This document shows, piece by piece, positions 5,838-30,936 of a stretch of DNA of 33,085 bases (position 1 is its first letter; every line of letters starts with the position of its first letter). The translations under genes were made by a program, and so were the position numbers. The notes beneath the pieces were generated by a model, which ran no database searches, was not told the DNA's origin, and saw only the letters and a list, made by a program, of their open reading frames with translations. Source of the stretch: an uncultured virus (IMG/VR IMGVR_UViG_640753051_000003) (taxonomy: Duplodnaviria > Heunggongvirae > Uroviricota > Caudoviricetes). The stretch lies in IMG/VR virus record IMGVR_UViG_640753051_000003, one strand, 5' to 3'.

Positions 5838-5846
5838 CCGGGATAG

Positions 5847-6341: not shown

Positions 6342-6371
6342 GTCAATCTCCGATGGAATAGAACCTGGCGC

Positions 6372-6827: not shown

Positions 6828-6840
6828 GATCTGATCCTCC

Positions 6841-7794: not shown

Positions 7795-7808
7795 CGAGAT
7801 CGCTCCTG

Positions 7809-9388: not shown

Positions 9389-9397
9389 GGTTGCCTC

Positions 9398-9426
9398 AAA
9401 AGAGAAGCCGCCCTAGTGAGGACGGC
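9398..9426 (-). terminator. Intrinsic terminator between portal and protease genes
   Basis: GCCGTCCT-CACT-AGGGCGGC stem followed by TTCTCTTTT on the minus strand. Confidence 0.55.
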
Positions 9427-9529
9427 AATGGCAATTCGAACGAAGCAGCGAGATCAGACCATGGTCCGTTACCAAGACTTCAGCCACGGGCTAGGTTCTG
9501 GACGTTCATAACAGTCGTGGAGTTTCGTC

Positions 9530-9622
9530 GTGACGAAGGTTTTGGTTGCCGCGATGGCATTGGTAATGGTTGGCTTCTGGGGTTCCGTCGGCGTCCTGGT
9601 TTACTCGCTACTTGCATCTTAG
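9530..9622 (+). CDS. 30-aa membrane micropeptide MTKVLVAAMALVMVGFWGSVGVLVYSLLAS
   Basis: GTG start with GGAG RBS; hydrophobic throughout. Confidence 0.5.
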   Translation: MTKVLVAAMALVMVGFWGSVGVLVYSLLAS

Positions 9623-9690
9623 TGAGTAGCGAGACCGGTTTTCGTCCGTTATAGTCCTCTCGGCAATGGAGGTTGCCTACGGAGGATTAC

Positions 9691-9783
9691 ATGAGCGACA
9701 CCGCATTTGGTTTCCTGTTGGCGGCTGAGTTGTCGGCCTTGTTCTGGGCCGGTCTTTTCATGGTGATTTTCTCCACCACTTGA
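9691..9783 (+). CDS. 30-aa membrane micropeptide MSDTAFGFLLAAELSALFWAGLFMVIFSTT
   Basis: GGAGG RBS 5 nt before the ATG; hydrophobic helix; stop abuts the portal stop. Confidence 0.6.
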   Translation: MSDTAFGFLLAAELSALFWAGLFMVIFSTT

Positions 9784-11160: not shown

Positions 11161-11168
11161 GTCCGCTC

Positions 11169-12500
11169 CTAAACGTTTGTCAGCGTGAAGGACGAACCTC
11201 CAAGCATCAACTCGGTGAGAGCCCAGACCAGGGCGTCGGCCCGGTCAGGTGAACCCTCTCCGAGGTATCCAGATGGCGTGAAATTGCACATCTGGTCTTC
11301 AAGGTCGGGGAAGTCTCCGACGTGATGAACCTTGCCCTGCTCATACAGCGCGCTGATAGGCTCTGCTCGCACCGCTTTGCCTCGGCTGGCGACAACTTCC
11401 TTGAAGGGCGCGGTCTTGTCAGCCGTCGAGACGGTGAAGCGCACCATGTCGCCGCCAAAGTTCCGTTCCCCAATGATCCGGTGCGCCTGGTGGCGATGGT
11501 AGAGGTCGGCCGCTCGCCTGCCCCATCCTTCTGGCGACAACTGGCAGGTGCCATCCTCAAGAATGTAGCCATGCCCATCGATGCCGAGGCCGGCGACGAC
11601 GATACCGATATCGTCACCCGCGCCATCGCCTCTCGTACCGGAGGGGTCGACGGAAACGACGATGCGCCGCATTTCAGGAGCGCTGGCGACACGCAGGCTG
11701 TCTATTCCCGGCATCAGCTTCCCGTCGGGCGCCTTGCGATCCTCAAGAGCCCACAGAGCGCCGCTGACTTCGCTGGCCCATTCTCCGGCCTCAAACCGCA
11801 ACCTCTTCGGCGCGGACATCGAGGCCAGAACCTCGAAATACTCAGGCGGCAGGTTCTCCGAGTTGTCGGCAGGATTCACCTGCATCTCGGCATAGTCTTC
11901 CGGCTTGGCCAGCTTCTCCTTCGTGCCCGGCTTCATCTTCGCCCGGAACATCTGAAAGCTCCAATGGAGCTTAGACGGCGGGTTGCAGTCGAAGTAGGCC
12001 TTGAGGGCTAGGTACCTTCTGCCTGTCGCGGCGGCGATCGCTGGAGCGAGTTCGCACTTCTGCGCCAAGCGAGACATCGCCATTTCGACGGATGCCCAAG
12101 GGATTTGGCTGCTCTCGTTGAAGTAGAGAGTGGCGTATTCCTGCCCCAGGATCTTCTCGACCCGCTCCTTATCATCGAGGCCGGCTATCCAGATCTGTGA
12201 TCCGTTCGGCAGCGCGACATAGAAGTCGGTCTTGTCAAACCTCACCCGAACCGACGGGAAGCAGAGGGCCAGAACTTTGGGCAGCGTATCGGACCAGACC
12301 GATGTCTTCGCGTGGTTGAACCGAAACCTGAATATGACGTGCCGCGAACCCGGAGCGTTTATCGCTCGCTGGATCAGCGCCCGACAAAGAACGAACGTCT
12401 TTCCGGAACGAGACCCGCCGCGGAGCATGATGTTGCGCGCCGGGCCGGCAAGGAGGCGATTAGCCTCTCGCTGTTTCTCCGTTAATCGAGCTACCTGCAT
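11169..12500 (-). CDS. terL: Terminase large subunit
   Basis: Walker A GGSRSGKT, YFNE Walker B variant, DCNP, nuclease VDP and SPDRADALVWA. Confidence 0.95.
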   Translation of the reverse strand: MQVARLTEKQREANRLLAGPARNIMLRGGSRSGKTFVLCRALIQRAINAPGSRHVIFRFRFNHAKTSVWSDTLPKVLALCFPSVRVRFDKTDFYVALPNGSQIWIAGLDDKERVEKILGQEYATLYFNESSQIPWASVEMAMSRLAQKCELAPAIAAATGRRYLALKAYFDCNPPSKLHWSFQMFRAKMKPGTKEKLAKPEDYAEMQVNPADNSENLPPEYFEVLASMSAPKRLRFEAGEWASEVSGALWALEDRKAPDGKLMPGIDSLRVASAPEMRRIVVSVDPSGTRGDGAGDDIGIVVAGLGIDGHGYILEDGTCQLSPEGWGRRAADLYHRHQAHRIIGERNFGGDMVRFTVSTADKTAPFKEVVASRGKAVRAEPISALYEQGKVHHVGDFPDLEDQMCNFTPSGYLGEGSPDRADALVWALTELMLGGSSFTLTNV

Positions 12501-12503
12501 GCG

Positions 12504-13004
12504 TCACAGTTCGGCATCCTCTGGCAAGACATTGAGGCTCATGCTCCCAGAGTGCTCGACACGCTCGATGAACATACCGAGGTGCTTGGCGAGCTTCTCC
12601 AAGGCGCTGTTCTTGTCCCAGACCTTAATCTTGTGGACGTGCTCGACCTCACCGTCGCCGGTGTTGCGGATCACCACTTCGACCGAAGCGACTGCTGCGG
12701 CTGTGTCATCATCCCACTCTTCGGGTCGAAGCAGCCTGCCGTTCGCATCGAACACGCGGCGAAGATCGGAGAAGCCGATACGAGACAGCTCTTTCAGAAC
12801 ACGTTCAACGGTCGCTTCCGCCTTGAGAGCGCCCTTACCCTGGATTTCGGCTACGCGCTCTTGAATGCTTTCATTTGCATTCAAACGTGCTGCATTTCCT
12901 CTGTTGGCTTTGAAGCCGGCGACGACATACGCCTCATCGACTGTATTGCCTTTCGCGCGGGCCTGCGCGAACTTCTCGTGCCGTGCGTTTTTCAGGATGG
13001 GCAT
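12504..13004 (-). CDS. terS: Terminase small subunit
   Basis: RHEKFAQ...AY..AG...AARL...VLKEL.RIGFSD...DK..ALEKL.KHLGMF. Confidence 0.93.
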   Translation of the reverse strand: MPILKNARHEKFAQARAKGNTVDEAYVVAGFKANRGNAARLNANESIQERVAEIQGKGALKAEATVERVLKELSRIGFSDLRRVFDANGRLLRPEEWDDDTAAAVASVEVVIRNTGDGEVEHVHKIKVWDKNSALEKLAKHLGMFIERVEHSGSMSLNVLPEDAEL

Positions 13005-13823: not shown

Positions 13824-14032
13824 GGTGACCTCTTTGTGGGGAGTAGCCCGCCCGTACACTTCGGCGAGCGGCAGCGGGACTTTTTTATATGGGAGGGCGT
13901 GAGCTAAGCGATGCCTTTTAGCACGTATACCGTGCGCCACTCGCGCTGTCACCATCAACTATGACAGGCCCCGGTGAGGGAACTTCACCGGTGTTGCCTT
14001 GCTTTGCTCGCATTCATAGATCGTGTTGGGGG

Positions 14033-14170
14033 ATGGATAAAGCAGGCATCGCATTTATGGCACTAATACTCGTCCTCATCTTTCTCGTGATGAGCATCCT
14101 GGCAGTCGATCGAACATCGATAGAGGGGCACCCGAATACGCAGGCGCTGGTTCCTACCAGCTACCCCTGA
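14033..14170 (+). CDS. 45-aa membrane-anchored peptide
   Basis: MDKAGIAFMALILVLIFLVMSILAVDR...; upstream GGAAC-N19-TT motif starting at 13979. Confidence 0.55.
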   Translation: MDKAGIAFMALILVLIFLVMSILAVDRTSIEGHPNTQALVPTSYP

Positions 14171-17162: not shown

Positions 17163-17780
17163 CTATACGGCTTGCCGAAGATTTTCAACCGCCGCGTCTG
17201 CCGTGAGACTATTCAGTTCACTGATAATTTTCTGCACCCGCTCTTTGATCTGCGGGCTTAGAGAATCTATAGCCCTCTCCGCCTGGTCGACCATTGAGAC
17301 GCGGGCTTTTCTTCCCTTAGGCAGGATCTTGCGAAGTTGGCCGCGCAGGTGCTGGATCTGCTCGTGGCGCTCGTTCTCCTTCCGGCAGTGCTGTTCGTAG
17401 AGGAAGGCTTGCCGGCGCTCGTGCTCGGCGAAATACAGAGCCTCGATCGTTGCGCTGGGAAACTCGAGCGGTCCATAGTTGGCACCGCGCAGGAAACACA
17501 CGGCACCGTCGACGCGGCGGAGCTCCTCGAAGTTCAACCTCGGCAGGTTCACGAAGGCATACCCGACCAGGAACGGAAACCGCTTCTCGATGATCTCGTT
17601 CGTCCGATGGTGCTTCAACTCCTTGTAAAACGACGGCATGAAGATGTCGAAGCCGTCCTTGCGGCAGTTCCGCTCGATGATGGATTCCATACGCCGACTC
17701 TCCGGGAGGCGCTCGTCCACGGCCGCCATGCGCTGATACCCGGGGGCCGTACGAATTGCGTACCAACGTGATCTGCTCAT
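17163..17780 (-). CDS. NusG-family late antiterminator
   Basis: RWYAIRT.PG...F.P...PFLVGYAFV NGN domain; last gene of the early operon (lambda Q position). Confidence 0.88.
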   Translation of the reverse strand: MSRSRWYAIRTAPGYQRMAAVDERLPESRRMESIIERNCRKDGFDIFMPSFYKELKHHRTNEIIEKRFPFLVGYAFVNLPRLNFEELRRVDGAVCFLRGANYGPLEFPSATIEALYFAEHERRQAFLYEQHCRKENERHEQIQHLRGQLRKILPKGRKARVSMVDQAERAIDSLSPQIKERVQKIISELNSLTADAAVENLRQAV

Positions 17781-18211
17781 GATTTTCCCTCGTTCTTCTT
17801 CGGCAATGACCGAGCATGGTGGTTTCGGCAGTAGCGACCCGTTGTTTCCGCCGCACAGAACAGGTACGGGCCGCCGGTGTTTAGGGGCCAGCAGCATTCG
17901 CGGGCCGAGAGATGGTGGAGGGGCTTTGCGGATTGGAGCCGCTCAGCGTCATAGGCAGTCGCCGCGATCTCCGGTTCCCGCTTCAGTTCCGGCGCCAGCT
18001 TGCGAGGCCGCGTCGTCTTCGCTTGGCCGGGTGCGCGAGACTTCTTCCCAGAGTCGCCGCGCCACGGGAAGAGACCGCGTTTGCGGAATGCCAGTCCGAC
18101 AATGACGTTGCGGCTGACGCCAAAGCGCTTGGCGATCTGGGAGGCAGGGAGATCATCCCTCCAGAGCTTCGCAGCAGCCTCGATGTCGACGGTGCGGTGC
18201 TGGATGGTCAT
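17777..18211 (-). CDS. GcrA-family regulator
   Basis: LW....ASQIA..FGVSRN.I.G...R helix-turn-helix and L....CCWP...FC......YC..H C-terminal domain. Confidence 0.88.
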   Translation of the reverse strand: MTIQHRTVDIEAAAKLWRDDLPASQIAKRFGVSRNVIVGLAFRKRGLFPWRGDSGKKSRAPGQAKTTRPRKLAPELKREPEIAATAYDAERLQSAKPLHHLSARECCWPLNTGGPYLFCAAETTGRYCRNHHARSLPKKNEGKS

Positions 18212-19546: not shown

Positions 19547-19926
19547 CAGCGGATGACCTCCACATCGATTCCGTAGATGGCCCGCATGAGCTTGCGTTTG
19601 ATGTTAAAGTCCTTGGTGGCAACGCCCTTGACGTCGACGATGCGGTTGCGCTTCTGGATCGCGTCGTAGAAGGCGAAATCCGCCTTGTAGGTGCAGACCA
19701 GCTGCCCATTGACCGTGAGCGCATACGGCTTCTGAAGCTCGACCTCGTAGACCTGGCCGGCGCGCTCCAACTGCTTCAGCGACGAATAGAACTCTGCCTC
19801 GCGTTTGCTGTCGAACTTGATGCCGTCGACGGTCGTCTTCTTGTTGCGGTACTTCGAGGGCCGCTCGGTTACGTCAGCTTCTCGGTTTGCTCGGAACTCG
19901 GCGGCGGACATACGATCTGAGATCAT
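19546..19926 (-). CDS. DUF1064 family PD-(D/E)XK nuclease-like protein
   Basis: SKYRNKKT.VDGIKFDSKREA...Y.ADF......VDVKG. Confidence 0.9.
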   Translation of the reverse strand: MISDRMSAAEFRANREADVTERPSKYRNKKTTVDGIKFDSKREAEFYSSLKQLERAGQVYEVELQKPYALTVNGQLVCTYKADFAFYDAIQKRNRIVDVKGVATKDFNIKRKLMRAIYGIDVEVIR

Positions 19927-20123
19927 CTTGCCCACTCCGCCATGAATGGTTCTTTGCCAGCGTAGGCAATCTTCTTGACCCGTCCCGCGTGAAGGCGCTC
20001 TGCGTAGCTGCAGTTCAGTCGCGCATTGATGAGACGGTCGGCCTCATGCTCTTTGATGGCCAAGGCCCCCGCGATCGCCATCGTGTCGGGCCCGAACTTG
20101 GCGTAGGCTTCGAGGAAGGTCAT
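19923..20123 (-). CDS. Hypothetical protein (66 aa)
   Basis: ATGA-coupled on both sides within the operon. Confidence 0.75.
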   Translation of the reverse strand: MTFLEAYAKFGPDTMAIAGALAIKEHEADRLINARLNCSYAERLHAGRVKKIAYAGKEPFMAEWAR

Positions 20124-20386
20124 AGGGCGGCTCCCGTTGCGAACTGGAACCTTTCGGCTCCGGCTAGGGTTGGCTTCGGGAGAAGGAGAACGTCATGTCC
20201 GTAGATCCCAAAGAGCCAAAAAAACCCGGGGAAGTTCCACCAGAGGAAACGCCCGATTCCCTGCCCGATATCCCAGATCGCCCCATCGAGGAGCCGGGAC
20301 CTGACCTTGTCCCAGAAGAGGCCCCGGACATTACCCCAGTGCCCGGCGAGGAAGTCCCGTCGAAGATGAGCGGTTGAACCTGTCAT
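20120..20386 (-). CDS. Coupled spacer ORF antisense to the 20195 moron
   Basis: Starts and ends in ATGA overlaps with its neighbours; the protein looks like an antisense shadow. Confidence 0.4.
   Translation of the reverse strand: MTGSTAHLRRDFLAGHWGNVRGLFWDKVRSRLLDGAIWDIGQGIGRFLWWNFPGFFWLFGIYGHDVLLLPKPTLAGAERFQFATGAAL
20146..20171 (+). promoter_or_regulatory. EcfG/RpoE2-type promoter
   Basis: GGAAC-N17-GGTT, followed by an AAGGAG RBS and ATG at 20195. Confidence 0.65.
20195..20377 (+). CDS. Acidic Pro/Glu-rich disordered small protein (60 aa, moron)
   Basis: AAGGAG RBS; MSVDPKEPKKPGEVPPEETPDSLPDIPDRP... Confidence 0.7.
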   Translation: MSVDPKEPKKPGEVPPEETPDSLPDIPDRPIEEPGPDLVPEEAPDITPVPGEEVPSKMSG

Positions 20387-21030
20387 GCCGTCACCTCGCG
20401 ATAGGCCGCGTAGTCGTCAGCGCGCTCGAGCTTCTTCCGGCACGGCGGGATCCAGACCAGCTTCGTGGTCGTGACGCCGTTTAGCCAGACGAGCCAGCAG
20501 TAGGAGGTGGCGGTCGATCCGGTCGCCGTGAGCCGGCCTTTGACCATCGGCACGCGCTCGGAGAACTGAGCCACAATCGATGGCGGGTTCTTGCTGAAAA
20601 GGTTCTCGTAGCGGCCCACGCCCTCCAGGAAGGAAGTGCGAACGATCATCGCAACGCCGACGGTGGCGACGTCTAGGGCCCGGGCGATGAATTGCTCGGC
20701 CAGTCGGAAAGGCGGGTTGGTGACGATCCAGTCAACGCCTCGTCCATCATCCCATGGAATCATTCCGGGAATGAGGAAGTCACCCTGAGCTCCCCGCCCG
20801 TAATTATGAACGTCGCTGGCCCAGACTTGGCCGAAGCTCTCTGCAAGCGGATCGACCATGTGGCCGCGATTGCAGGCCGGTTCCCAGCAGGTCTTATCCC
20901 TGAGGCGGTATCCGGCGAGGACGTGAAAGCACAGCGCCCGCGTGGCCCAAGGCTGCGTCGGGAAGTCGTCGAGGCTGTCGTCAGGCTCGGAGCGCTGCTG
21001 CATGACAGCGCTGGAGGTGTTCTGGTTCAT
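20383..21030 (-). CDS. Amino (N6-adenine or N4-cytosine) DNA methyltransferase
   Basis: DDFPT..WAT..L, WEPAC..G.M SAM-binding motif, IVTNPPF catalytic motif. Confidence 0.88.
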   Translation of the reverse strand: MNQNTSSAVMQQRSEPDDSLDDFPTQPWATRALCFHVLAGYRLRDKTCWEPACNRGHMVDPLAESFGQVWASDVHNYGRGAQGDFLIPGMIPWDDGRGVDWIVTNPPFRLAEQFIARALDVATVGVAMIVRTSFLEGVGRYENLFSKNPPSIVAQFSERVPMVKGRLTATGSTATSYCWLVWLNGVTTTKLVWIPPCRKKLERADDYAAYREVTA

Positions 21031-21371
21031 TCTGCCTCCCTCCCCTTGCAAGTATCGGTAGTTGCTCTGGAACGATTGAGAGGGAAGTCGGTTAGGCCGC
21101 CAGAAACAGCAGGTATGTGGACATGGCTGAGAACTGGGACGAATGCGTAATCATCGATCTGCCCAATCTCGAAGGCGTTCAAATCGTGTGGTCGCCCGCT
21201 TATGCAGCTCAATTGCTTAGTGAAAACTGGCCGGACACGAAGGGACGAAGCTATTCCGCGGCGCTGAACGCCTGTACGGACGCGATGCTCGGCGCCGCTT
21301 CGGCAGCGCCTGCACGAGACGCTTTCCTCGCAGCGGTCGACGAGGCGAAGATTAAAACCCTGCGTTGACAT
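21027..21371 (-). CDS. Coupled spacer ORF antisense to the DUF982 moron
   Basis: TGATG overlap at its start and ATGA overlap at its end; open across the whole moron. Confidence 0.4.
   Translation of the reverse strand: MSTQGFNLRLVDRCEESVSCRRCRSGAEHRVRTGVQRRGIASSLRVRPVFTKQLSCISGRPHDLNAFEIGQIDDYAFVPVLSHVHIPAVSGGLTDFPLNRSRATTDTCKGREAE
21069..21093 (+). promoter_or_regulatory. EcfG/RpoE2-type promoter
   Basis: GGAAC-N16-GGTT about 30 nt before the DUF982 start. Confidence 0.7.
21123..21368 (+). CDS. DUF982 family protein (moron)
   Basis: W...V.I...V.S...AA..L...WP..KG..Y.AA..AC..A......A..AR.AF.AA..EA signature. Confidence 0.88.
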   Translation: MAENWDECVIIDLPNLEGVQIVWSPAYAAQLLSENWPDTKGRSYSAALNACTDAMLGAASAAPARDAFLAAVDEAKIKTLR

Positions 21372-21553
21372 CACGCGGGTACCCTCCCCTTGCAAAGAGC
21401 AATGACGGAATCGAGCATGGCGTTGTCGCGAAGCTTGTTTTCGGTTTCGGTCTCAGGACGCGGGCGCTTAGAGCGTGGACCGTGATCTTCGAGCCAGGTG
21501 AACTTCTGGCGCTTCTGGGCTTCGGCCCATTCGATGATGGCGGTGGTGATCAT
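21371..21553 (-). CDS. Hypothetical protein (60 aa)
   Basis: ATGA-coupled; WLEDHG..SKRPRP. Confidence 0.7.
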   Translation of the reverse strand: MITTAIIEWAEAQKRQKFTWLEDHGPRSKRPRPETETENKLRDNAMLDSVIALCKGRVPA

Positions 21554-22317
21554 GCTGCCTCGCGAAGGAACTGCTCAATTGCGAAATCGCACCATTGATC
21601 CGCCATGGCGGCGGCGATGCCCGGGAAGAAGCGTGAGCGCTCCCTCCCTCGGTCCGGGCCAGGTGACATTCGATGCACCCGTGACCACGCCTTGTGCTCG
21701 GCCGTGCCGCGAGCCGGCGGTGTCAACTTCTGTGTCGGAAGCAGGGTCGGCAGGTTGCGCAGGTAGAGACCGGTAGCCTTGAAAAACGGTTCGCCGAACC
21801 ACCACGGCTGGACGGTTTGGGCAGGCGGCCGAAAGTCGGCGATGCGTTCCTTCGCATGCCGATGCATAACGGGATTTTCGATGCAGATGCGGTCGACCGG
21901 CGCATTCCAGAAGGCGGAGAATAACGCAGCGCCTTCGTCGAGCTCAGCCCACATTTGTTCGGCATTCTTGCCAGGCGGCGGGACGGACAGCCAGCGAACG
22001 CCGCTATTGCAGAGCCGCGTGCATGGAGGATGCGCGACGATCAGCATGTCCCATCCGTCGTTTAGAACGTCGCGTGCATCGCCACGGATGTGCCGGTTGC
22101 TGCCGTTTTCTGCCGGCAACAGATCGCAGGACCATGCATCATGACCGCGATCGAGGAACGCATCCCGGACCGTGCCGGAGAACTCGCAGGTGACAAGAAC
22201 ACGCAGGGATCTTGTTCGGCTCCGGCTGACGGTAGGGAAAGGTAAAGTCGTTTGGGTTGGGAAAGGCCGATTATTCCCTTGGCCGTTTCCGGCGCATCCA
22301 GCGGAGGAACTTCTCAC
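21550..22317 (-). CDS. Short C5-cytosine DNA methyltransferase-like protein
   Basis: RVLV.CEFSG.VR.AF...GH.AWSCD, AHPPCT (PC motif), IENP, QPW.FG....KAT.L.L..LP; start uncertain. Confidence 0.82.
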   Translation of the reverse strand: MRSSSAGCAGNGQGNNRPFPTQTTLPFPTVSRSRTRSLRVLVTCEFSGTVRDAFLDRGHDAWSCDLLPAENGSNRHIRGDARDVLNDGWDMLIVAHPPCTRLCNSGVRWLSVPPPGKNAEQMWAELDEGAALFSAFWNAPVDRICIENPVMHRHAKERIADFRPPAQTVQPWWFGEPFFKATGLYLRNLPTLLPTQKLTPPARGTAEHKAWSRVHRMSPGPDRGRERSRFFPGIAAAMADQWCDFAIEQFLREAA

Positions 22318-22718
22318 TTTGAAGCCTCCCCCATTCCCACGCTCTCACCAGAGCGCTTGTCAGCAGTCGCATGGGCTTTCCTCAGTGCATGGCGTTCGGT
22401 CCGATGCTTGGCCGCCGCTTCCTCGTTTCTCAGGCACACTTCCTCGTAGGCCATATGTGCCAGCATCAGCGCCCGATAAGCTGATCCGGCAATATCCCTC
22501 ATTTCACGTGTCTTGTACTGCAGTCGATAGAGGTAGCTTTCGGGAATGCCGGTCTTGTCTGCCAGCCTTCCCCGAACCGCCTTCTCTCGGTCGCCCCGGC
22601 CCTTGAACTCAGCGTTCATCAGGGCGGCGTACCAACCTTTTGCCTCACTCAGTGCCACACTTGTCATCTTTGCCTCGGAAACACGTTTTCCGGATTTGGA
22701 AACTCTATTGCCGTACAT
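22314..22718 (-). CDS. Putative DNA-binding protein (CII position)
   Basis: RLADKTGIPESYLYRLQY helix-turn-helix-like segment; start uncertain. Confidence 0.7.
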   Translation of the reverse strand: MYGNRVSKSGKRVSEAKMTSVALSEAKGWYAALMNAEFKGRGDREKAVRGRLADKTGIPESYLYRLQYKTREMRDIAGSAYRALMLAHMAYEEVCLRNEEAAAKHRTERHALRKAHATADKRSGESVGMGEASK

Positions 22719-22761
22719 TTCGGGGTCCCCGTGCGAGTGTCTCTTTGCGTAGGAGACACCG

Positions 22762-23013
22762 ATGCCCAGGAACTTCCCTTCCGATGGAGAGGACGGCACC
22801 GCGCCAACGGCTGCCGGTCCCTCCCAAGTCTTTCCTTTCCGCAGGACCACCGCCGCAACGTCCGGTCCTGCCGCCGGTGACGCGCCCTCGTCGTCACCGG
22901 CAATCCCTCTCGGAGAAGCTGTTCAAGCCGTGGTCATGAGACTGGCGAACAAGCGGATCCGGTTGAGAGTTGCAGGCCCCGATCGGGAGGAGGAGGACCG
23001 GGACCTGCGTTGA
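22762..23013 (+). CDS. Hypothetical protein antisense to the early operon
   Basis: AGGAG RBS; PLGEAVQAVVMRL amphipathic segment. Confidence 0.5.
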   Translation: MPRNFPSDGEDGTAPTAAGPSQVFPFRRTTAATSGPAAGDAPSSSPAIPLGEAVQAVVMRLANKRIRLRVAGPDREEEDRDLR

Positions 23014-23327
23014 GCGCCTCGGGAGGAGGTGAAAGCGCTCAATCCTTTCTGCGGTAGCCGTTCCGGCGAAACTCACGCTCGACGAAGCCGGGAACGACCA
23101 GTGTCAGAGCTGCCATCCAGAGAACGACGCCGGTGCAGGCGATAAAAACGGACCAGGACATGCAGCCCTCCTATCAGAGCGTTTCGGACAATCGGTCTTG
23201 GAGACAAAGGCCGCGACAGCAGCCGAGACTTCGACGCGCGGCACCTGGAGACGGGGAAGGTTCACCCGGCCCTCAACGGTTCTCTGCGCAGTGGCGTCTT
23301 CTGTCTTTGATGTACGGAGATACTCGC

Positions 23328-24137
23328 TCATGCGACTTCCTCCGCCTTCTCGCGCATAGCCTTCCGGCAAGAATGACAATGGTTCGCACCGTAGCCGCCG
23401 CACGCTTCAGGGTTCCGGCAATTGGGCCGGAGGGCGGATTTCGGCTTGGTGATGGAGTTGGCGGCCGGGCTTTCACCGGCTCCAGCATGGCTCACGCTAC
23501 CGTCTTCCGTTTCCGGGACTGCCTTACGGGCGTTTTCCGCTGGCACGGCTTGGGCGATCTCGTCGCCTCGAAGCACGTCGCGGTCCATCCCGTTTGCCTC
23601 TTCAGGCGAATGGGATGCCCGTTTTACGTCCGGGCCAGACGCGCTTGCGACGGCGTTTTTGGCTACTTCTTCACTTTCGCCTCCTGCGCTCGTTGCGATC
23701 TCTTCGATGATCTCGCCCGTTTCGGGGTCGAACTGCTCGGACGGCGGCGGTTCAACGCCAGCGGCGTTCGCCAGTCGGGCATGGCCCTTCACTGCAGCGA
23801 CTTCGCCGCCGTCCGATTTCGGAAATTGTTCAATGTTTTCTCGTGCGCGGGCGGGCGCTGGCGTGTGCGAGGACACAGCAGCGGCCAGGACCAAGGCCGG
23901 ACCCTCGTATGCAGAGAGATAGAGTTCGACGATCGCGTTCTGCTCGCTGAACGCATCTTCGCCGATCTTGCCGCGCTTGCGGATCAGCTGGACAACCTGA
24001 CCCATTGCGGTCTTGTCGAACCCCATGGACTTTGCTTCCGCGTAGATGTCGCGGATGTCCTCGCCGATCGTGTCCTGCTCTTCCTTCAAGCGAAGGATGC
24101 GGTCGATGAAGGCTCTGATCTGGGCGTCGGACGTCAT
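23328..24137 (-). CDS. GapR/DUF2312 (UPF0335) DNA-binding protein with acidic linker and C-terminal Cys cluster
   Basis: QIRAFIDRILRL.EE...I.EDIRDIYAEAKS.GFD; C-terminal CRNPEAC.......HC.SC. Confidence 0.88.
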   Translation of the reverse strand: MTSDAQIRAFIDRILRLKEEQDTIGEDIRDIYAEAKSMGFDKTAMGQVVQLIRKRGKIGEDAFSEQNAIVELYLSAYEGPALVLAAAVSSHTPAPARARENIEQFPKSDGGEVAAVKGHARLANAAGVEPPPSEQFDPETGEIIEEIATSAGGESEEVAKNAVASASGPDVKRASHSPEEANGMDRDVLRGDEIAQAVPAENARKAVPETEDGSVSHAGAGESPAANSITKPKSALRPNCRNPEACGGYGANHCHSCRKAMREKAEEVA

Positions 24138-24376
24138 TGTGCGTTCTCCCGAGCTGGGAAGAACTCTTCGGCCTTGAGCGGTATCCTCTTCGACTTTGCA
24201 TACGCCAGCAGCGCGGGTGCGTCTGTCTGGGGAATCAACCCGCCGGTACCACCCTTCTCTTTCGGGTACATCCAGCGGTACACCCGGGACACGTGCTTCC
24301 CGGTGACCTCGGCCACCTTTTCGATACCGATTTTGCCGATAATGGATTTTGCAGGCTCGAGATGTTTTTCGCTCAT
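24134..24376 (-). CDS. cro: Cro-like repressor
   Basis: 80 aa; KVAEVTGKHVSRVYRW helix-turn-helix, GGTGG.IP; divergent from cI. Confidence 0.85.
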   Translation of the reverse strand: MSEKHLEPAKSIIGKIGIEKVAEVTGKHVSRVYRWMYPKEKGGTGGLIPQTDAPALLAYAKSKRIPLKAEEFFPARENAQ

Positions 24377-24383
24377 GTCGCGA

Positions 24384-24470
24384 AATTTGCGATTATCGCG
24401 ACAATTTGTCAATGGGGTCGCGATAACTAACTTGCGATATTCGCGATGGAGTTTTTTGCGGAATCCGCGA
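24384..24470. promoter_or_regulatory. cro/cI switch: three 15-bp operators and the cro promoter
   Basis: TTGCGATTATCGCGA 24387-24401, TTGCGATATTCGCGA 24432-24446, TTGCGGAATCCGCGA 24456-24470; minus-strand TTGACA at 24412-24407. Confidence 0.85.
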
Positions 24471-24480
24471 AGATCGCCGC

Positions 24481-25197
24481 ATGAGTGACCCACAATATGA
24501 ACTGAAACAATGGCTTGCAGAAAAACTCGCGGCTCGCGGCGTGGCTTCGAAACTCGCCGAAGCTACGGGTATGTCCAACGACAAGATCACGCGGTCAAAA
24601 GAACTGCACAGCGACGATCCTAAGAAGCGCCGTCAGATATCTCTCCAAGAGATAGAGGCGATGGCGAGATTCTTTAGGGAATTGCCGCCTGGCTTCGAAC
24701 AAATGACGCGTTGGTTAGAGGATCTGTCCCCCGCCCCCACGGCCAAGCCGATACCAAACGCCAGCTTCCCGCCGCGCTGGCAGCAATTCCCCGGCGATGC
24801 TTCGATTCCGCTTCGAGGGCACATTGCCGCCGGAGCCAACGGTCGGTTCATTATGAACGGTCAGGATATCGCCACGGTTTTTTGTCCGCCCGGCCTCGAG
24901 GGCGTTGAGGGCGCGTATGCCGTGCAGGTCGACGGCCGCTCCGGCGAGCCACGCTTCCTTCACGGCGAGACCGCGTGGGTGAACCCTCATCAGAAGGTCC
25001 GACAGGGCGACGATGTCGTAGTGCAGATCCTGGAAGACGATGAGCTATCAAGCTACCTCAAGCGGTTCGTTTCCAGATCCGCCGATGTGCTTCGCCTCTA
25101 CCAGTACAACCCCGGCAAAGGCGAAAGCCACGATCTGGAGTTTCCTACGGACAAAGTTTTCAGCGTCCACAAAGTTGTGTTTCATGCGATGCTTTGA
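24481..25197 (+). CDS. cI: CI-like repressor with S24 peptidase domain
   Basis: N-terminal helix-turn-helix, AAG cleavage site, V.G.S..P serine and YLKR lysine. Confidence 0.92.
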   Translation: MSDPQYELKQWLAEKLAARGVASKLAEATGMSNDKITRSKELHSDDPKKRRQISLQEIEAMARFFRELPPGFEQMTRWLEDLSPAPTAKPIPNASFPPRWQQFPGDASIPLRGHIAAGANGRFIMNGQDIATVFCPPGLEGVEGAYAVQVDGRSGEPRFLHGETAWVNPHQKVRQGDDVVVQILEDDELSSYLKRFVSRSADVLRLYQYNPGKGESHDLEFPTDKVFSVHKVVFHAML

Positions 25198-25451
25198 AGC
25201 GCTTCGTCGCAGCGCCATGTTGGCCGAACGGTCAAATTGCGGAATGCCGGCGGCATCTTTGGGCACTCGCTGCAGCGGATCTTTCGGCATAACTGCATGT
25301 AGTTGTGAACACCGAGTTCCGCGGCTTTCATCAGGTTATCGAGGCGGAGAATGCGGGAATGCCCGCAATCATCGCAAGCTACGTACACGCTCTCAAGTTC
25401 AACGACGAGCCGCAAGGCGTCGGGGTGATCTACGGGAGCGTTACGGGTCAT
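25182..25451 (-). CDS. Zn-ribbon protein (89 aa), predicted SOS-inducible
   Basis: CDDCGH...CSEC; AGGAG RBS; LexA box upstream. Confidence 0.78.
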   Translation of the reverse strand: MTRNAPVDHPDALRLVVELESVYVACDDCGHSRILRLDNLMKAAELGVHNYMQLCRKIRCSECPKMPPAFRNLTVRPTWRCDEALQSIA

Positions 25452-25467
25452 TTCTGTCTCCTGCGAT

Positions 25468-25482
25468 GTTCCGTCTTTGTTC
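25468..25482 (-). promoter_or_regulatory. Alphaproteobacterial LexA (SOS) box
   Basis: GAACAAAGACGGAAC = GAAC-N7-GAAC, 16 nt before the ATG at 25451. Confidence 0.8.
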
Positions 25483-25600
25483 TCATCAAAACAGCAGGAA
25501 TGCAGCCGGGAGTCGAGTCGGTTTTCAGAAATATTTAGCTTGCCACAACAGGTAGCGATGCGACTGATGGCGAGCCCAAGATATCCGCGGGGGCGATTAG

Positions 25601-26420
25601 ATGGGCGAGCTTGTTGAAGGGGATGACGGGCTCCCTGCTGAGGACGTCGGGCCATGGGCTATTGAAAAATACAACTATCTCTGTCGGTACGTTGACATCT
25701 CGCGCGGTGCTCGCGGTAAGTTCATAGGACCAGGCAAGGCCGGCGCCACTTACCTTGACCTTTTCTGTGGCCCAGGGCGAGCGAAGGTGAGGAACGGCGA
25801 ATTCACCGACGGCGGCTGTGTTGCTGCCTGGCGCAAGAGCGTTGCTGGCGGGGGGCCGTTTTCTCAGGTCTTCATTGCCGACATTGACGAGGTCCGCTTG
25901 AATGCCGCGGCGGAACGCCTGAAGCAGGCCGGCGCACCGGTCACAGCCTTTCACGGGCCGGCCCTGCAGACGGTTGAAAGTATTCTCAAGCGACTAGATC
26001 CGTATGGGCTTCACTTCGCGTTCCTCGACCCGTTTAGCCTCGGGGTCCTCGACTTCCGGATTTTCCAGAAGCTGGCGAAAAGGAAGCGCATGGATATCCT
26101 TGTGCATCTCAGCAAAATGGACCTTCAGCGCAATCTTGGGCGTAACTTGGCAGCCGACGTTTCAGCCTTCGATGCATTCGCTCCCGGTTGGAGGAGCGAT
26201 CGACGCCGCCCAAGGCCAGCAAGGCATTAGAGTTGAACTGATCAACTACTGGAAGACCCTCGTCAAGAATCTCGGGATCGCGGCATCGGCGGAGATGAAG
26301 CTTCTGAAGGGTGAAAAAGACCAGCACCTGTATTGGCTATTGCTGGTCGCCAGTCACACCCTTGCGCATCGGATTTGGAACACCGCAGCAAACGACGATG
26401 GTCAACGGCGCCTATTTTAA
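25601..26420 (+). pseudogene. tcmP: Three-Cys-motif partner protein TcmP (methyltransferase fold), frameshifted near 26190-26197
   Basis: VGPW...K...L..Y, YLDLFCGPG, FAFLDPF; the C-terminus (AIDAA...LYWLLLVASH.LA..IW) continues in another frame. Confidence 0.85.
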
Positions 26421-27163
26421 GCGGTCGCGGGCATCGCGTCCCAGGTGCGTCCGCGATAGGAACGCCCCGTCGCTTTCTTGTTCCTGCCGCCCCATTGCTT
26501 GAAGAAGAAGGCAGAGCCCGCCTCCGAGCACATTTCGAAAACCTCGTCGATCCATACCGGATCCATGGGCCGCGCCTTCGGGCCAGATTCGCCGCCGACA
26601 ATAGCCCAGTCGATGCCATCCAGTCGGCCCGCGGCAACGGAGCCGATGAGCGGTTCAAACGAGACGAAGCGAATTGCGGCAGGCACTCGGCGAAGCTCGT
26701 CGAGGCGATCGATCACACGCCCGTCTTCTACGCTGGAGCCAAGCCAGACATTCGGCAGAACATCGAAACCGTCGCGCAGGATATACGCCATGCGATCCGG
26801 CCGCTTGGTGAGGATCTGGTATGTGTGGCGCCGCGTATCAGCCATTGCCCGCCACACTTTTCGGATGAACTCCACCGGCACGTCTGGGTGAAATAGGTCG
26901 GACATCGAGTTGACGAATACATTCCGTGGCTTTGACCAGGTCGATGGCACAGAAAGCGCGCTCTCGTCGAGATAGAGGTCGCCCGTCCATTTCGCTCGAC
27001 CGCCGCTCTTGCGTGTCAGGCCTCGGTACTTCTCGAGCCCCATGGCTTCAAGGCGCGCCGCCATACGCATCGCGTAGCAGTTGGTGCACCCCGCACTCAT
27101 TATCGAGCAGCCGGCTACGGGATTCCACGTTGCATCAGTCCATTCGATCGATGTTTCAGCCAT
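26417..27163 (-). CDS. DUF5131 / phage Gp37Gp68 family radical-SAM-like protein
   Basis: IEWTDATWNP..GC...S.GC.NCYA, FVNSMSDLFH, LTKRP, SFEPL, W.IVGGESG, FFFKQWGG. Confidence 0.93.
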   Translation of the reverse strand: MAETSIEWTDATWNPVAGCSIMSAGCTNCYAMRMAARLEAMGLEKYRGLTRKSGGRAKWTGDLYLDESALSVPSTWSKPRNVFVNSMSDLFHPDVPVEFIRKVWRAMADTRRHTYQILTKRPDRMAYILRDGFDVLPNVWLGSSVEDGRVIDRLDELRRVPAAIRFVSFEPLIGSVAAGRLDGIDWAIVGGESGPKARPMDPVWIDEVFEMCSEAGSAFFFKQWGGRNKKATGRSYRGRTWDAMPATA

Positions 27164-27297
27164 AGGACGCTCCCCGACCTTCAGAGATAAGCGATAGTTG
27201 CGATTTGGTTAAAGATCGGTTGCGCGCCGCCAGTCTCTCTCAGGCCGATCTTGAGGCCGAAATCTACCACGCGGAGAATCTGCGGGCCAAGTCAATT

Positions 27298-27360
27298 TTG
27301 CGAAATAGCGATAATCGCAAATTGATCTGTTGACTTATTTTGCGATAGTCGCGAATATCT
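27298..27360 (+). promoter_or_regulatory. PL-like early promoter with two operators
   Basis: TAGCGATAATCGCAA 27306-27320 and TTGCGATAGTCGCGA 27340-27354 flank TTGACT at 27330. Confidence 0.82.
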
Positions 27361-27411
27361 CCTTCGTCAGCGAGACGCCGTGGACACACGACCGCGCCGG
27401 GAGATGAAACG

Positions 27412-27645
27412 ATGGGCACGATGGTTACCCGATACAGGATTGAAGACGAGGTCGGCCGCGTCCTGACCAACGAATATTTCTTCTCTTACGAAGTCGACGA
27501 CGCTCTGCAGTTTCGTTGCGAAGACGAGGCTCTCGAAGAAGCCGCCGCCTTCCCGCGCACGACCGTCGAGCGCTTCGAGCGCTATTCGACCTTCCCCGAT
27601 TTCTTCCTCTCGGAAGGCGTCTCGGTCGAGAGGAGCGCAGCATGA
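27412..27645 (+). CDS. Hypothetical protein, first gene of the PL-like operon
   Basis: GGAG RBS; ATGA coupling downstream. Confidence 0.75.
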   Translation: MGTMVTRYRIEDEVGRVLTNEYFFSYEVDDALQFRCEDEALEEAAAFPRTTVERFERYSTFPDFFLSEGVSVERSAA

Positions 27646-27902
27646 TCACGACAACGCAGCTCCGCGCCTTCGCGTTCTTCCTCTCGAACACCAGCAGGTG
27701 GGAGCTTGAGAAGGCGGGGATTATTTCACCCGGCCCGAGCGGCGACACTGCCTGGAAGCGCTTCAACAACGACTTCGACGTGTTCGTGATCAAGCTCTCC
27801 GCCGAGAAGCTGGCGGCCATGACGGACATGATCGCCGGCTACCTGCAGGTGAGCGAATACTCCCGCGAGCAGGCGGCAGCGGCTGCACGGAACGTCGCGT
27901 GA
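27642..27902 (+). CDS. Hypothetical protein (86 aa)
   Basis: GAGGAG RBS; MITTTQLRAFAFFL... Confidence 0.75.
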   Translation: MITTTQLRAFAFFLSNTSRWELEKAGIISPGPSGDTAWKRFNNDFDVFVIKLSAEKLAAMTDMIAGYLQVSEYSREQAAAAARNVA

Positions 27903-28138
27903 TGAGCCGCCCCGTCTCCCACGCCTGCGACCCTGCGAAGCGCTATTGCGAATGCGGCCGCTGCGCCCTCCCGCCAGCGCGCAACATCGATCTGGACGCG
28001 GTCGCCAACCTGAACCGCGCCACCACTGCAACCGCCATGTGCCTGATCCTGATCGCCCTCCTCCTCGGCATTTTCGCCGCGGGCCTTTGGCGGACGGAAC
28101 AGGTGCACAAAGCAATCGTCGCCGAAAGGAATGTCTAA
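27902..28138 (+). CDS. Hypothetical membrane protein with Cys motif
   Basis: CDP...YCECGRC plus one transmembrane helix; coupled on both sides. Confidence 0.7.
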   Translation: MSRPVSHACDPAKRYCECGRCALPPARNIDLDAVANLNRATTATAMCLILIALLLGIFAAGLWRTEQVHKAIVAERNV

Positions 28139-28665
28139 TGGCCATGCCCGACCTTGACTACAACCTTCATCGCCAGACCGAGGCGGCAAAGTCGCTTCTG
28201 TCCAGCCTTCGCGACCAAGGCGTTGACGATGACGCCGATCTGGTCGCCGACGCGATAGAGGGCGAAACCAACCTCCTCGAGGCTATCGAAGCCGCCCTTG
28301 CGCAGATCGACGAGTGCGACGTCCTCATCACCGGTTTGAAAGCCAAGGAAGAGGAATTCGAGACCCGCCGCAAGTCGATTGAGCGCCGAGCCGAGCGCGT
28401 CCGAGCCCTGATCGAACAGGCGATGTTAGCTACCGATCAAACGTCGCTAAAGCTGCCGACAGCCACCCTGTCGCTCACGAAGCGCGCGCCCGGCCTGATC
28501 GTCAACAGCGAAGCGGACATCCCTTCCCGCTTCTTCGTCGAGCAAGAGCGCCCCGCGCCGAAGCTGGACAAGAAGGCTTTGGCCGCCGCGATCAAAGCCG
28601 GCGAGCAAGTGCCCGGCGCCAACCTCGACAACGGCAGCATCTCTCTTTCCGTCCGGAGGAAGTAA
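28138..28665 (+). CDS. Siphovirus Gp157-family protein
   Basis: D.IEGET...IP..F......KLDKKAL..A.K.GE.VPGA.L.NG..SL..R.K. Confidence 0.88.
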   Translation: MAMPDLDYNLHRQTEAAKSLLSSLRDQGVDDDADLVADAIEGETNLLEAIEAALAQIDECDVLITGLKAKEEEFETRRKSIERRAERVRALIEQAMLATDQTSLKLPTATLSLTKRAPGLIVNSEADIPSRFFVEQERPAPKLDKKALAAAIKAGEQVPGANLDNGSISLSVRRK

Positions 28666-28668
28666 TCC

Positions 28669-29676
28669 ATGAACGCAATCACGAAATTCGACCTGTCGCC
28701 GCGCCAGATTGCGCTGGTCCAGCAGACCGTGGCCAAAGACTGCAACGCCGACGAGTTCAACTTGTTCATGGAAGTCGCCCGGGCGAAGGGCCTCGATCCC
28801 TTCCTCGGACAGATCATTCCAATGGTCTTCTCGAAGGACAATGCCAAGAAGCGGAAGATGACGATCATCATCAGCCGCGACGGTCAGCGCGTCATTGCGC
28901 AACGCTGCGGCGACTATCGGCCGGCCAGCAAGCCAGCAACGTATGAGATCGATCCGTCGCTCAAGGGGCCGACCAATCCTCAGGGCATCATCTCTGCGAC
29001 GGTCTACCTCTGGAAGCAGGACCCGAAATCGGGCGACTGGTACGAGGTTGCCGGTCAGGCCTATTGGGAGGAATTCGCGCCAATCTCTCACTCGCCCGAT
29101 CAGTACAACTACGTTGAAACCGGCGATACCTGGCCAGACGGAAAGCCCAAGAAGATGAAGAAGCTGAAGGACGGCGCCGTTCCTTCGCTCGACGATTCCG
29201 GTAACTGGTGCCGGATGCCGCGCCTCATGATCGCCAAGTGCGCCGAGATGCAGGCACTGCGCGCGGGCTGGCCCGAGCAGTTTACCGGCCTCTATGATGA
29301 AGCCGAAATGGACCGCGCCAAGATCATCGATCTGACCGCGTCCGAGATCGTCGAGCACGAGCGCGAGGAAAACCGCCTCAAGGCCGTCGGCGCCTCGAAT
29401 TCCATCACCATTACCTGGGGAGACAATTGGGCGCTTGAGAATGTGCCTGTCGGTGAGTTCTTCGACCGCGCCTGCGAGTTCATCAAAAACGAACCGCCGG
29501 CAAAGGTAGCGAAGTGGCGCGACGCAAATCGGGAACCGCTTAAACTCTTTTGGTCAAAGCATCCCGGCGACGCTCTGGAACTGAAAAAGAGGCTCGAAGC
29601 CGCAATCGCGCGTGCCCCGGCAAAGAGTGCCGTGACCGACGCCGAGCTTCGCACCCACGTTTTGGCGGCGGGCTGA
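28669..29676 (+). CDS. Bet/RecT-family single-strand annealing recombinase
   Basis: EF.LF....R..GLDPF..QI, I.RDG.R.IA.R.G.Y, W..MP..MIAKCAE.QALR..WP...GLY..AEM. Confidence 0.92.
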   Translation: MNAITKFDLSPRQIALVQQTVAKDCNADEFNLFMEVARAKGLDPFLGQIIPMVFSKDNAKKRKMTIIISRDGQRVIAQRCGDYRPASKPATYEIDPSLKGPTNPQGIISATVYLWKQDPKSGDWYEVAGQAYWEEFAPISHSPDQYNYVETGDTWPDGKPKKMKKLKDGAVPSLDDSGNWCRMPRLMIAKCAEMQALRAGWPEQFTGLYDEAEMDRAKIIDLTASEIVEHEREENRLKAVGASNSITITWGDNWALENVPVGEFFDRACEFIKNEPPAKVAKWRDANREPLKLFWSKHPGDALELKKRLEAAIARAPAKSAVTDAELRTHVLAAG

Positions 29677-29677
29677 C

Positions 29678-30199
29678 ATGAGCGGCCCGGTCCTATTGCA
29701 ATGGAACGGCGAGGCCTTCCAGCCGGCAAACCGGCACTGGGCCCGCGAGTGCGACAAGCGTTTCGTGGTCGGCGAGTTCTATACGCTCGCCGAGCACAAC
29801 GACCGCAGCATGAATTCGCACCGGCATTATTTCGCCGCGGTCGCCGATGCCTGGCGGAACCTGCCCGAGCAATATTCCGGCCTGCCTTTCGCCGAATCCG
29901 CTGAGCACCTGAGGGCCTATGCCCTGATCAAGAAGGGCTATTGCGACACGCATACCATCGTCTGCTCTAGCAAAGCGGAGGCAAAGAGGCTCGCGGCCTT
30001 CATCCGCCCGATTGACGCTTTCTCCGCTGTCGACGTGAAGGAAGCGACCGTTACCCGCTACGTGGCGAAAAGCCAGTCAATGAAGGCGATGGACAAGCAG
30101 GAATTTCAGGAAAGCAAGACGGCCGTTCTCGACTTCCTCGACGATCTAATCGGAGTCGAGCGCGGCACCACGCAGCGAAACGCGGGAGCCGCAGCATGA
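29678..30199 (+). CDS. Hypothetical recombination-region protein (NinB-like position)
   Basis: RS..SH.HYFA.....W...SQS..AM...EF. Confidence 0.78.
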   Translation: MSGPVLLQWNGEAFQPANRHWARECDKRFVVGEFYTLAEHNDRSMNSHRHYFAAVADAWRNLPEQYSGLPFAESAEHLRAYALIKKGYCDTHTIVCSSKAEAKRLAAFIRPIDAFSAVDVKEATVTRYVAKSQSMKAMDKQEFQESKTAVLDFLDDLIGVERGTTQRNAGAAA

Positions 30200-30204
30200 G
30201 CGTC

Positions 30205-30441
30205 TCAGACTTGATCCTTGGTCACCTTCGGCGGAACCCGGCCAGTGTGATGAACGGGGTTGTCCTTGCCAGCACCTTCCGTCGGGTTCTCCCGCTTTTC
30301 GGACTGGCCGCTTCGCGCCGGCGGCACATCGGCGCCCTCGCTACCAGACTCGTCCGCCTGGTCTGGCAATGGCACCGGTTCGAAGTCCATATCCGGAGGC
30401 GTCGTCGTCTGCCGGTTCTTGTGGTCTTTGGGATCGATCAT
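30205..30441 (-). CDS. Hydrophilic disordered small protein (78 aa, moron)
   Basis: AAGGA RBS; MIDPKDHKNRQTTTPPDMDFEPVPLP... Confidence 0.68.
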   Translation of the reverse strand: MIDPKDHKNRQTTTPPDMDFEPVPLPDQADESGSEGADVPPARSGQSEKRENPTEGAGKDNPVHHTGRVPPKVTKDQV

Positions 30442-30469
30442 GGTCGGAGTCCTTTCGCATCGCGGTTTC

Positions 30470-30494
30470 AACCAACCGCGTTCAGTAAGGTTCC
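30470..30494 (-). promoter_or_regulatory. EcfG/RpoE2-type promoter
   Basis: GGAAC-N16-GGTT on the minus strand, 28 nt before the ATG at 30441. Confidence 0.7.
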
Positions 30495-30516
30495 ACTCAA
30501 CGGGGGGGGCCGCGTG

Positions 30517-30936
30517 ATGGCCTACCGCATCGCCAACTCCGTTCGTCCCGATCCGACACCAAAGCGGAAGCCGACGAAGAACAAAGATTACCTCGCGTTC
30601 ATCCACGAGCTGCCGTGCTGCGTATCAGGCCGCTACGGCGTCGAGGCTGCGCACCTGTCTTGCGCGGCTCCCCGATTTGGTCATTACGGTCGTGGCAAAG
30701 GCAGCAAGGTTTCCGACCGCTGGGTTCTGCCTCTTCATCCGGACGAGCACCGCCGCCAGCACGGCATGAGCGAAGAGCGGTTCTGGCGCGCGGCCCGCAT
30801 CAACCCGCACGTGCTCGCCCTCACCATACACGGCCTCTGGACTGATATGGGCGAGGATGCGGCGCCCTTCGCAACTGCTATCATCAATCAGACGTTGGCC
30901 GACGCCGGCGCGCTCCGGTCGAGGGACGAGGTATGA
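30517..30936 (+). CDS. DUF968-like HNH/Zn-finger protein
   Basis: YLAFI..LPC...G....EAAH...G.G.K.SD.W..PL...H..QH; in frame with an upstream extension from 30196. Confidence 0.82.
   Translation: MAYRIANSVRPDPTPKRKPTKNKDYLAFIHELPCCVSGRYGVEAAHLSCAAPRFGHYGRGKGSKVSDRWVLPLHPDEHRRQHGMSEERFWRAARINPHVLALTIHGLWTDMGEDAAPFATAIINQTLADAGALRSRDEV

Follow-up and report, generated by a model that had tools for sequence, protein, structure and literature searches.

The window analysed here is the complete 33,085-nucleotide stretch of IMG/VR record IMGVR_UViG_640753051_000003, an uncultured virus of the Caudoviricetes. The source names of public records mark it as a prophage of Sinorhizobium meliloti/medicae; its nearest cultured relative is Sinorhizobium phage phiLM21, and its G+C content lies between 54 and 63%. 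Its two early operons carry three small genes that point against the direction of the operon, two in the leftward operon and one in the rightward operon. Each small gene is preceded by a motif resembling the promoters of RpoE2/EcfG, the general-stress sigma factor of the host, and forms with this motif and a short leader a compact cassette. An open reading frame (ORF) of the operon strand, here called a bridging ORF, spans each cassette; it begins in a start/stop overlap with the preceding operon gene and has no stop codon opposite the small gene, the leader and the promoter motif (Table 1). The small genes are conserved as proteins and the bridging peptides are not, and the operon-strand frame is open in every distinct cassette evaluated among the relatives.

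Small gene 2 belongs to a known family, as it matches Pfam PF06169 (DUF982) with 89.5 bits where the cut-off is 22.2 (E 1.3e-25), and S. meliloti records also name it DUF982. None of the three small genes matches PHROGs or NCBIfam, and gene 1 is without a Pfam match as well. G+C content at third codon positions does not separate small gene 1 from its antisense frame, and substitution patterns were therefore used instead. Between the window and the homologue in related locus L015, the third codon position accounts for 38 of 51 substitutions, and 28 changed codons are synonymous and 13 non-synonymous; the corresponding numbers against locus L005 are 14 and 19. For small gene 1, 11 homologues were found, from Shinella, Sinorhizobium and metagenomes, and they are named hypothetical proteins only. 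Small gene 3 has a codon log-odds of 13.9 for its own strand, like ordinary genes, with 22 homologues in Sinorhizobium, Ensifer and Mesorhizobium and annotation on 190 contigs. Genes 1 and 3 are Pro/Glu/Asp-rich families under purifying selection. A tblastn search of isolated phages with gene 1 and the DUF982 gene gave no match, and a low-complexity filter may hide gene 1 in that search. Public annotation treats the first cassette differently: the 88-aa bridging ORF 1 is a RefSeq hypothetical protein on 95 contigs, whereas the exact 60-aa gene 1 is recorded from a single assembly only. The annotation of the bridging ORF instead of the conserved gene is a systematic mis-call.

Table 1. Features of the window (positions in window coordinates; promoters are predicted; SD, Shine–Dalgarno sequence)
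Feature	Position	Strand	Remarks
Small gene 1	20195..20377	+	60 aa, Pro/Glu-rich; SD GGAGAAGGAGA upstream
Small gene 2	21123..21368	+	DUF982 protein, 81 aa (83 aa from GTG 21117)
Small gene 3	30205..30441	-	78 aa, N-terminus MIDPKD, acidic, Pro-rich
RpoE2/EcfG-type promoter 1	20146..20171	+	GGAAC-N17-GGTT, pattern match; ends 23 nt before ATG 20195
RpoE2/EcfG-type promoter 2	21069..21093	+	GGAAC-N16-GGTT; 29 nt to ATG 21123, 23 nt to GTG 21117
RpoE2/EcfG-type promoter 3	30470..30494	-	GGAAC-N16-GGTT; 28 nt to ATG 30441
Bridging ORF 1	20120..20386	-	88 codons, ATGA overlap at both ends
Bridging ORF 2	21027..21371	-	114 codons; start TGATG on stop of 21371-21553, end ATGA on methylase start 21030
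Bridging ORF 3	30196..30516	+	Start ATGA on NinB-like stop; with 7 G, 107 codons and end TGATG
ATGA junction	20383-20386		Methylase stop and bridging ORF 1 start
ATGA junction	20120-20123		Bridging ORF 1 stop and start of next gene
TGATG junction	21369-21373		Start of bridging ORF 2
ATGA junction	21027-21030		End of bridging ORF 2
ATGA junction	30196-30199		Start of bridging ORF 3
Run of 8 G	30502..30509		7 in relatives
14-nt direct repeat CCCTCCCCTTGCAA, copy 1	21038..21051		Flank of cassette 2; operon strand TTGCAAGGGGAGGG, holds SD
14-nt direct repeat, copy 2	21382..21395		Flank of cassette 2
Stop-free frame leading into repressor gene	23133..24488	+	451 codons, antisense to early-left genes, ends on repressor start 24481
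Operon gene downstream of cassette 1	19923..20123	-	Homologue abuts methylase directly in relatives
DNA methyltransferase between cassettes 1 and 2	20383..21030	-	phrog_799, E 6e-59
Operon gene upstream of cassette 2	21371..21553	-
NinB/Orf-like gene upstream of cassette 3	29678..30199	+	phrog_15346 and phrog_319
DUF968/HNH gene downstream of cassette 3	30517..30936	+	Pfam DUF968 at residues 121-189 of the 246-aa frame
Late genes	3-13004	-
NusG/RfaH-like transcription antiterminator	17163-17897	-	End of early-left operon; phrog_25909, E 8e-102
Leftward early operon			GapR-like, two DNA methyltransferases, resolvase, replication genes, GcrA-like, NusG-like antiterminator
Immunity region			After leftward early operon; S24 repressor 24481-25197
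Rightward early operon			Gam-like, RecT, NinB-like, DUF968/HNH, DUF1643, integrase (Pfam and PHROG matches)

The first-pass annotation of this DNA placed GGAAC-N16/17-GGTT sites 23–29 nt upstream of the three operon-opposing small genes, and all of them are present where it put them. The window holds three such sites against 0.50 expected, a number reached in 1 of 100 shuffles. According to PMC3738161, GGAAC-N18/19-TT is strictly conserved in S. meliloti RpoE2 promoters and lies 5–11 nt upstream of the transcript start, and Table S10 of that work includes promoters ending in GGTT, such as those of katC and SMb20236. A second consensus for RpoE2/EcfG, GGAAC-N15/16-gcgTTt, is given in PMC4914127. 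The three sites of the window all fit both published forms, and the assignment of GGAAC...GTT to the EcfG/RpoE2 type is thus in line with the published sequence, including its GGTT −10 boxes. Across 80 related loci (493,712 bases), 14 sites have the form GGAAC-N16/17-[ACG]GTT, of which 13 are antisense to the operon and one runs with it, and 11 of the 13 antisense sites lie 22–29 nt before the start of a DUF982 or gene-1-family gene. The motif is conserved in relatives while the flanking sequence diverges; that of promoter 3, for example, is kept as GGAAC-N18/19-TT in gene-3 homologues of 42–70% identity (L130, L152 and L153). No terminator-like site was found after any of the three small genes. 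Judged from the motif match, transcription of the three small genes in the lysogen probably depends on the general-stress sigma factor of the host, and the two small acidic families and the DUF982 gene are candidate new members of the RpoE2 regulon in S. meliloti lysogens. The region 13979-14170 (+) holds a fourth site, which has the relaxed RpoE2 form GGAAC-N19-TT with a −10 box GCTT. A 45-aa ORF that contains a single hydrophobic helix (MDKAGIAFMALILVLIFLVM...) starts 28 nt after this site, at ATG 14033, in a plus-strand island that separates the late and early-left operons.

The bridging ORFs of the window occupy the same frame in all three cassettes, namely the codon-aligned antisense frame of the small gene. 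In this frame, stops arise only from the sense codons TTA, CTA and TCA, so that a single open frame is not rare. The stop-free operon-strand ORFs that the first-pass annotation described for the first two cassettes, with a start overlap and a handover to the next gene, agree with the sequence. Its third ORF is open from 30196 and has the ATGA start, whereas the separate end holds only for a slightly different sequence: as read in the window, the ORF stays stop-free over 30196-30936(+) and is fused in frame to DUF968 (ATG 30517) because of the run of 8 G. Three near-identical loci (L116–L118) and contigs of RNA libraries X2 and X13 have 7 G, the contigs with one base fewer at 30502. These libraries belong to 13 RNA runs that contain most of the region as contigs, of which four were compared (X1, X8, X2 and X13). 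Both lengths of the DUF968 product are found in public records, the 139-aa form on 146 contigs and the 246-aa form on 23. The bridging ORFs have no family match in Pfam, PHROG or NCBIfam, and their peptides have a high content of Arg, Trp, Gly and Phe, the composition that antisense translation should yield.

Related phages without a cassette reveal how the three cassettes came to their places. At the site of cassette 1, phiLM21 and loci L006, L007, L012, L013, L017, L021, L023 and L028 have the methylase stop in direct overlap with the following start codon (GCATGAC/A); the joining sequence is GCATGACC in phiLM21, L006, L007, L013 and others. Cassette 1 represents 263 extra nt in the window, with ATGAC on both sides. 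Since the insertion took place at the junction, bridging ORF 1 starts at the SD and ATG of the next gene in the empty-site phages; the two are indeed those of the 19923-20123 homologue. A new SD for the gene downstream of cassette 1 is supplied by the end of the cassette. Cassette 2 is flanked by two copies of a 14-nt direct repeat, and the undisturbed site in L014 has one junction copy. In L119, L135, L147 and L155, DUF968 is preceded by a forward gene in a TGATG overlap. The cassettes are insertions exactly at former ATGA/TGATG junctions.

The comparison set for the cassettes comprises 131 related IMG/VR prophage loci and the window, and the census was made by hidden Markov model searches with the three small-gene families only. 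All 47 family matches are antisense to the operon. A start could be assigned in 41 of them, and these form 18 clusters; after removal of one double count and of two clusters cut by a locus end, 15 distinct evaluable cassettes remain, which lie in 14 bridging frames with a total of 1762 codons. The DUF982 members of different cassettes are only 26–35% identical and gene-3 members 42–70%, and the same small-gene families are found at different junctions. In 13 of the 15 cassettes the motif lies 22–31 nt from the start codon and an SD stands between the two, a spacing that leaves room for a transcript start 5–11 nt past the motif. The bridging frame has no stop over gene, leader and promoter in any of the 15, and it starts on the upstream stop, mostly as GCATGA (12 of 14 bridging starts). 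All 14 bridging frames are coupled at both start and stop, one of them ending 3 nt before the next start without overlap, and an SD-like sequence lies upstream of each of the 14 bridging starts and of 13 of the 14 downstream starts. The first-pass annotation had proposed a check of the antisense frames in related prophages, and none of the evaluated frames is interrupted. Variants of the arrangement also occur. In L005 (2225-3004), a single bridging ORF, 260 codons long (266 between stops), spans two cassettes, one with a gene-1-like gene and one with a DUF982 gene, and both have a motif. In L009 (3657-4495), two motif-less DUF982-like genes lie under two tandem bridging ORFs, which are joined by a TAATG overlap of the first stop with the second start.

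The proposed explanation is that three compact cassettes, each with an RpoE2/EcfG-type promoter, a short SD-bearing leader, one small gene and no terminator, were inserted in reverse at translationally coupled junctions of both early operons. The pass-through ORF created in this way begins at the ribosome-binding site and start codon that formerly served the displaced downstream gene, runs stop-free antisense to small gene, leader and promoter, and ends in an ATGA or TGATG overlap on the next start, where an SD comes from the end of the cassette. During lytic growth, ribosomes could then remain on the early mRNA across the foreign antisense DNA, and their transit would preserve coupling and protect the transcript from polarity, either as Rho termination or as decay of untranslated RNA. 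Selection keeps the open frame and its phase, not the peptide; translation of the bridging ORFs, with polarity or coupling as the selective force, would account for this. Taken as a whole, the reading of reverse stress-promoter cassettes crossed by pass-through ORFs that keep ribosome traffic, coupling and polarity resistance is held to be probable, with moderate confidence. Stress-driven antisense transcription that damps the lytic genes would be compatible with the lack of terminators.

Several observations speak against this explanation, and they are considered here together with the alternatives that they would favour. One alternative is chance, under which the bridging frames would be no more than the shadow ORFs usual in G+C-rich DNA, with nothing selected. 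All of the frames are codon-aligned antisense frames, the codons TTA, CTA and TCA make up only 37 of 3772 codons in the genes of the phage, and simulation with the phase given yields a probability of being open of 0.113, 0.296 and 0.310 for the three bridging frames of the window. A chromosomal control points the same way: a single DUF982 protein query led to one Ensifer locus as an entry point, and among 33 DUF982 genes from Rhizobiaceae genomes (two duplicated loci removed), 20 coding sequences have no stop on the aligned antisense frame. In DNA of 60% G+C this frame is often open, and a single case therefore proves little. The excess appears over the whole set of cassettes, where 15 of 15 are open, and the frame takes its phase from the preceding stop and finishes on the start that follows. 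Their antisense codons contain 0 stops in 1246 against 7.3–12.2 expected, and over the 502 non-coding codons the bridging frame has no stop, whereas the two remaining frames have 24 and 18. Only 10 of the 33 chromosomal genes are open over the coding sequence and at least 75 nt upstream, compared with all 15 cassettes (Fisher P 3.4e-6). Simulated probabilities of being open range from 0.03 to 0.34 for the individual frames. They multiply to 10^-11.7, to which no phase factor has yet been applied, but this product overstates independence because the cassettes may share ancestry. Chance is accordingly regarded as very improbable. Equally hard to credit is true dual coding, in which the operon-strand ORFs encode functional small proteins overlapping the small genes; the term 'dual-coding design' in the first-pass annotation finds no support in this sense. 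The bridging ORFs do have SDs and start codons, and NCBI annotates the 88-aa product noted above. Nevertheless, the bridging frame compared between the window and L015 has 1 synonymous and 40 non-synonymous changes, in the same stretch where the small gene shows mostly synonymous ones, and 3 and 30 in comparison with L005. The bridging sequences of different cassettes are unrelated, because the DUF982 genes opposite them are so divergent, and their composition and lack of family matches speak against functional proteins. Without conservation of the peptide, openness is the one property maintained, which does not amount to dual coding of two proteins.

A by-product of cassette exchange is a more substantial alternative. 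Recombination at a conserved junction (SD plus GCATGA) would pass cassettes from phage to phage as modules with the shape of a gene, openness would be inherited without any importance of translation across the frame, and rare codons would be avoided for the small gene's own expression. The uniform junctions, the short junction duplications at the flanks, the occurrence of the same families at different junctions and the general rarity of TTA, CTA and TCA all agree with this. However, divergent cassettes are also without stops in their non-coding promoter and leader parts, which are beyond the reach of codon bias. A frame that was open once would decay to a baseline of about 0.1–0.3, and at the low identities within the DUF982 and gene-3 families inherited openness should have decayed. 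Moreover, a long frame that leads into the repressor gene, described below, has the same property without any cassette. Cassette exchange as the sole cause is therefore judged improbable, though less so than chance or dual coding. The downstream genes have their own SD and may not need coupling for their translation, and counter-examples from other antisense gene families may exist outside the three-family census. A separate doubt concerns the promoters, whose GGAAC...GTT sites could be read by another extracytoplasmic function (ECF) sigma factor or be silent, with the small genes expressed by another route. The two cassettes of L009 are without the motif, and the DUF982 cassettes of L011 and L015 fit the relaxed form only. 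The motif lies within 120 nt of only 9 of the 33 chromosomal DUF982 genes. On pSymB, strain 2011 carries SMb20546, a DUF982 gene with about 90% identity, whose leader measures 95 nt and which is not induced in stationary phase; within the readable supplements of PMC3738161, including Table S10, it appears only in two expression tables; DUF982 genes are thus not uniformly RpoE2 targets. The RNA libraries provide contigs only at these loci, without starts, strands or levels of the small genes. On the other side stand the exact match of the sites to the conserved RpoE2 sequence, their 13:1 strand bias, the narrow spacing to the start codon and the retention of the motif between diverging flanks. 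Promoters independent of RpoE2 are on balance considered unlikely, though the possibility deserves to be taken seriously.

The long frame leading into the repressor gene extends the pattern beyond the cassettes. In the window it is antisense to the GapR-like gene (23328-24137) and to the gene at 24134-24493, and the minus-strand genes opposite it are the conserved ones. Frames of at least 300 codons (341–714) that lead into the repressor gene are present in 24 of 44 related loci, belonging to 11 sequence clusters, and contain 0 stops in 5082 codons compared with 137 and 124 in the other frames. In libraries X2 and X13, one contig about 10-fold deeper covers the immunity region 24012-27239, with starts at about 24012 and 24053. 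These starts, known from contigs only, are some 430–470 nt upstream of the repressor gene and inside the early-left antisense region; they give a weak hint of a long repressor leader. The repressor transcript may carry the 23133-24488 frame as a translated leader. A 40-aa ORF with a hydrophobic sequence (MSWSVFIACTGVVLWMAALTLVV...) and a strong SD, GGAGGG, lies at 23039-23161 (-), between the GapR-like gene and the gene at 22894-23076. In lambda, the P_RE-type transcript runs antisense through an early gene into cI. Like that transcript, the frame in the window lies opposite early-left genes and reaches the start of the repressor gene, and the deep RNA contigs begin upstream of this gene. In contrast, the antisense leader here is a conserved stop-free frame, and to our knowledge no such leader frame has been described for lambda. 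A more general design rule for temperate rhizobial phages can be put forward tentatively, with a chance of being right slightly short of even. Under this rule, an early or immunity transcript that is read antisense to other genes would be kept as a translatable, phase-locked and product-less pass-through ORF, for reverse cargo and for the repressor leader alike, and would serve both Rho shielding and handover. If true, prophage cargo could be wired to a host stress sigma factor inside essential operons without polar cost, and stress-driven antisense transcription would face the lytic genes.

The components of the arrangement, namely morons, RpoE2 promoters, translational coupling and shadow ORFs, are each already known. 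Phage morons, a concept of Hendrix and colleagues, are autonomous promoter-gene-terminator units between phage genes. The cassettes share with them an extra gene with its own promoter-like motif between genes that are adjacent in related phages, and are presumably expressed in the prophage. They differ in lacking a terminator, in being antisense to the operon in every family match, and in lying exactly in a start/stop overlap with the operon strand kept as a coupled open frame. With known RpoE2/EcfG promoters the sites have in common GGAAC-N18/19-TT, a (G/C)GTT −10 box and a short leader, whereas here these putative promoters lie inside prophage early operons and are directed against them. Translational coupling via ATGA or TGATG overlaps and Rho termination of untranslated RNA, the basis of operon polarity, are general features of bacterial operons. 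The bridging ORFs start and stop in such overlaps like ordinary operon genes, but the coupled gene has no conserved product and seems to be only a ribosome carrier across antisense cargo. Like shadow ORFs, they are long open frames on the codon-aligned antisense strand of a real gene; unlike these, they always keep a phase that fits the genes on either side and continue across non-coding DNA. Antisense overlapping gene pairs differ in that only one partner is conserved as a protein here. No description of a phase-locked, product-less ORF across antisense cargo and no EcfG-type morons in prophage early operons were found in the literature, the coverage of journals and supplements being incomplete. 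If the frames are kept for ribosome transit, they would form a class of ORFs selected for being translated and not for their product. This would bear on the limits that polarity sets to cargo sites in phages, on the annotation of overlapping or hypothetical ORFs, on the tying of prophage cargo to a host regulon and on the design of synthetic operons with antisense inserts.

Other candidates for antisense genes were not retained. The plus-strand ORFs 1382-1990 and 5165-5914 in the late operon of the window were rejected as genes by codon score, and a codon log-odds screen for further antisense genes gave 206 candidates, mostly out of frame, and was abandoned as too noisy. The early-left operon ends in the NusG/RfaH-like antiterminator gene listed in Table 1, which is relevant to the handling of Rho by the phage.

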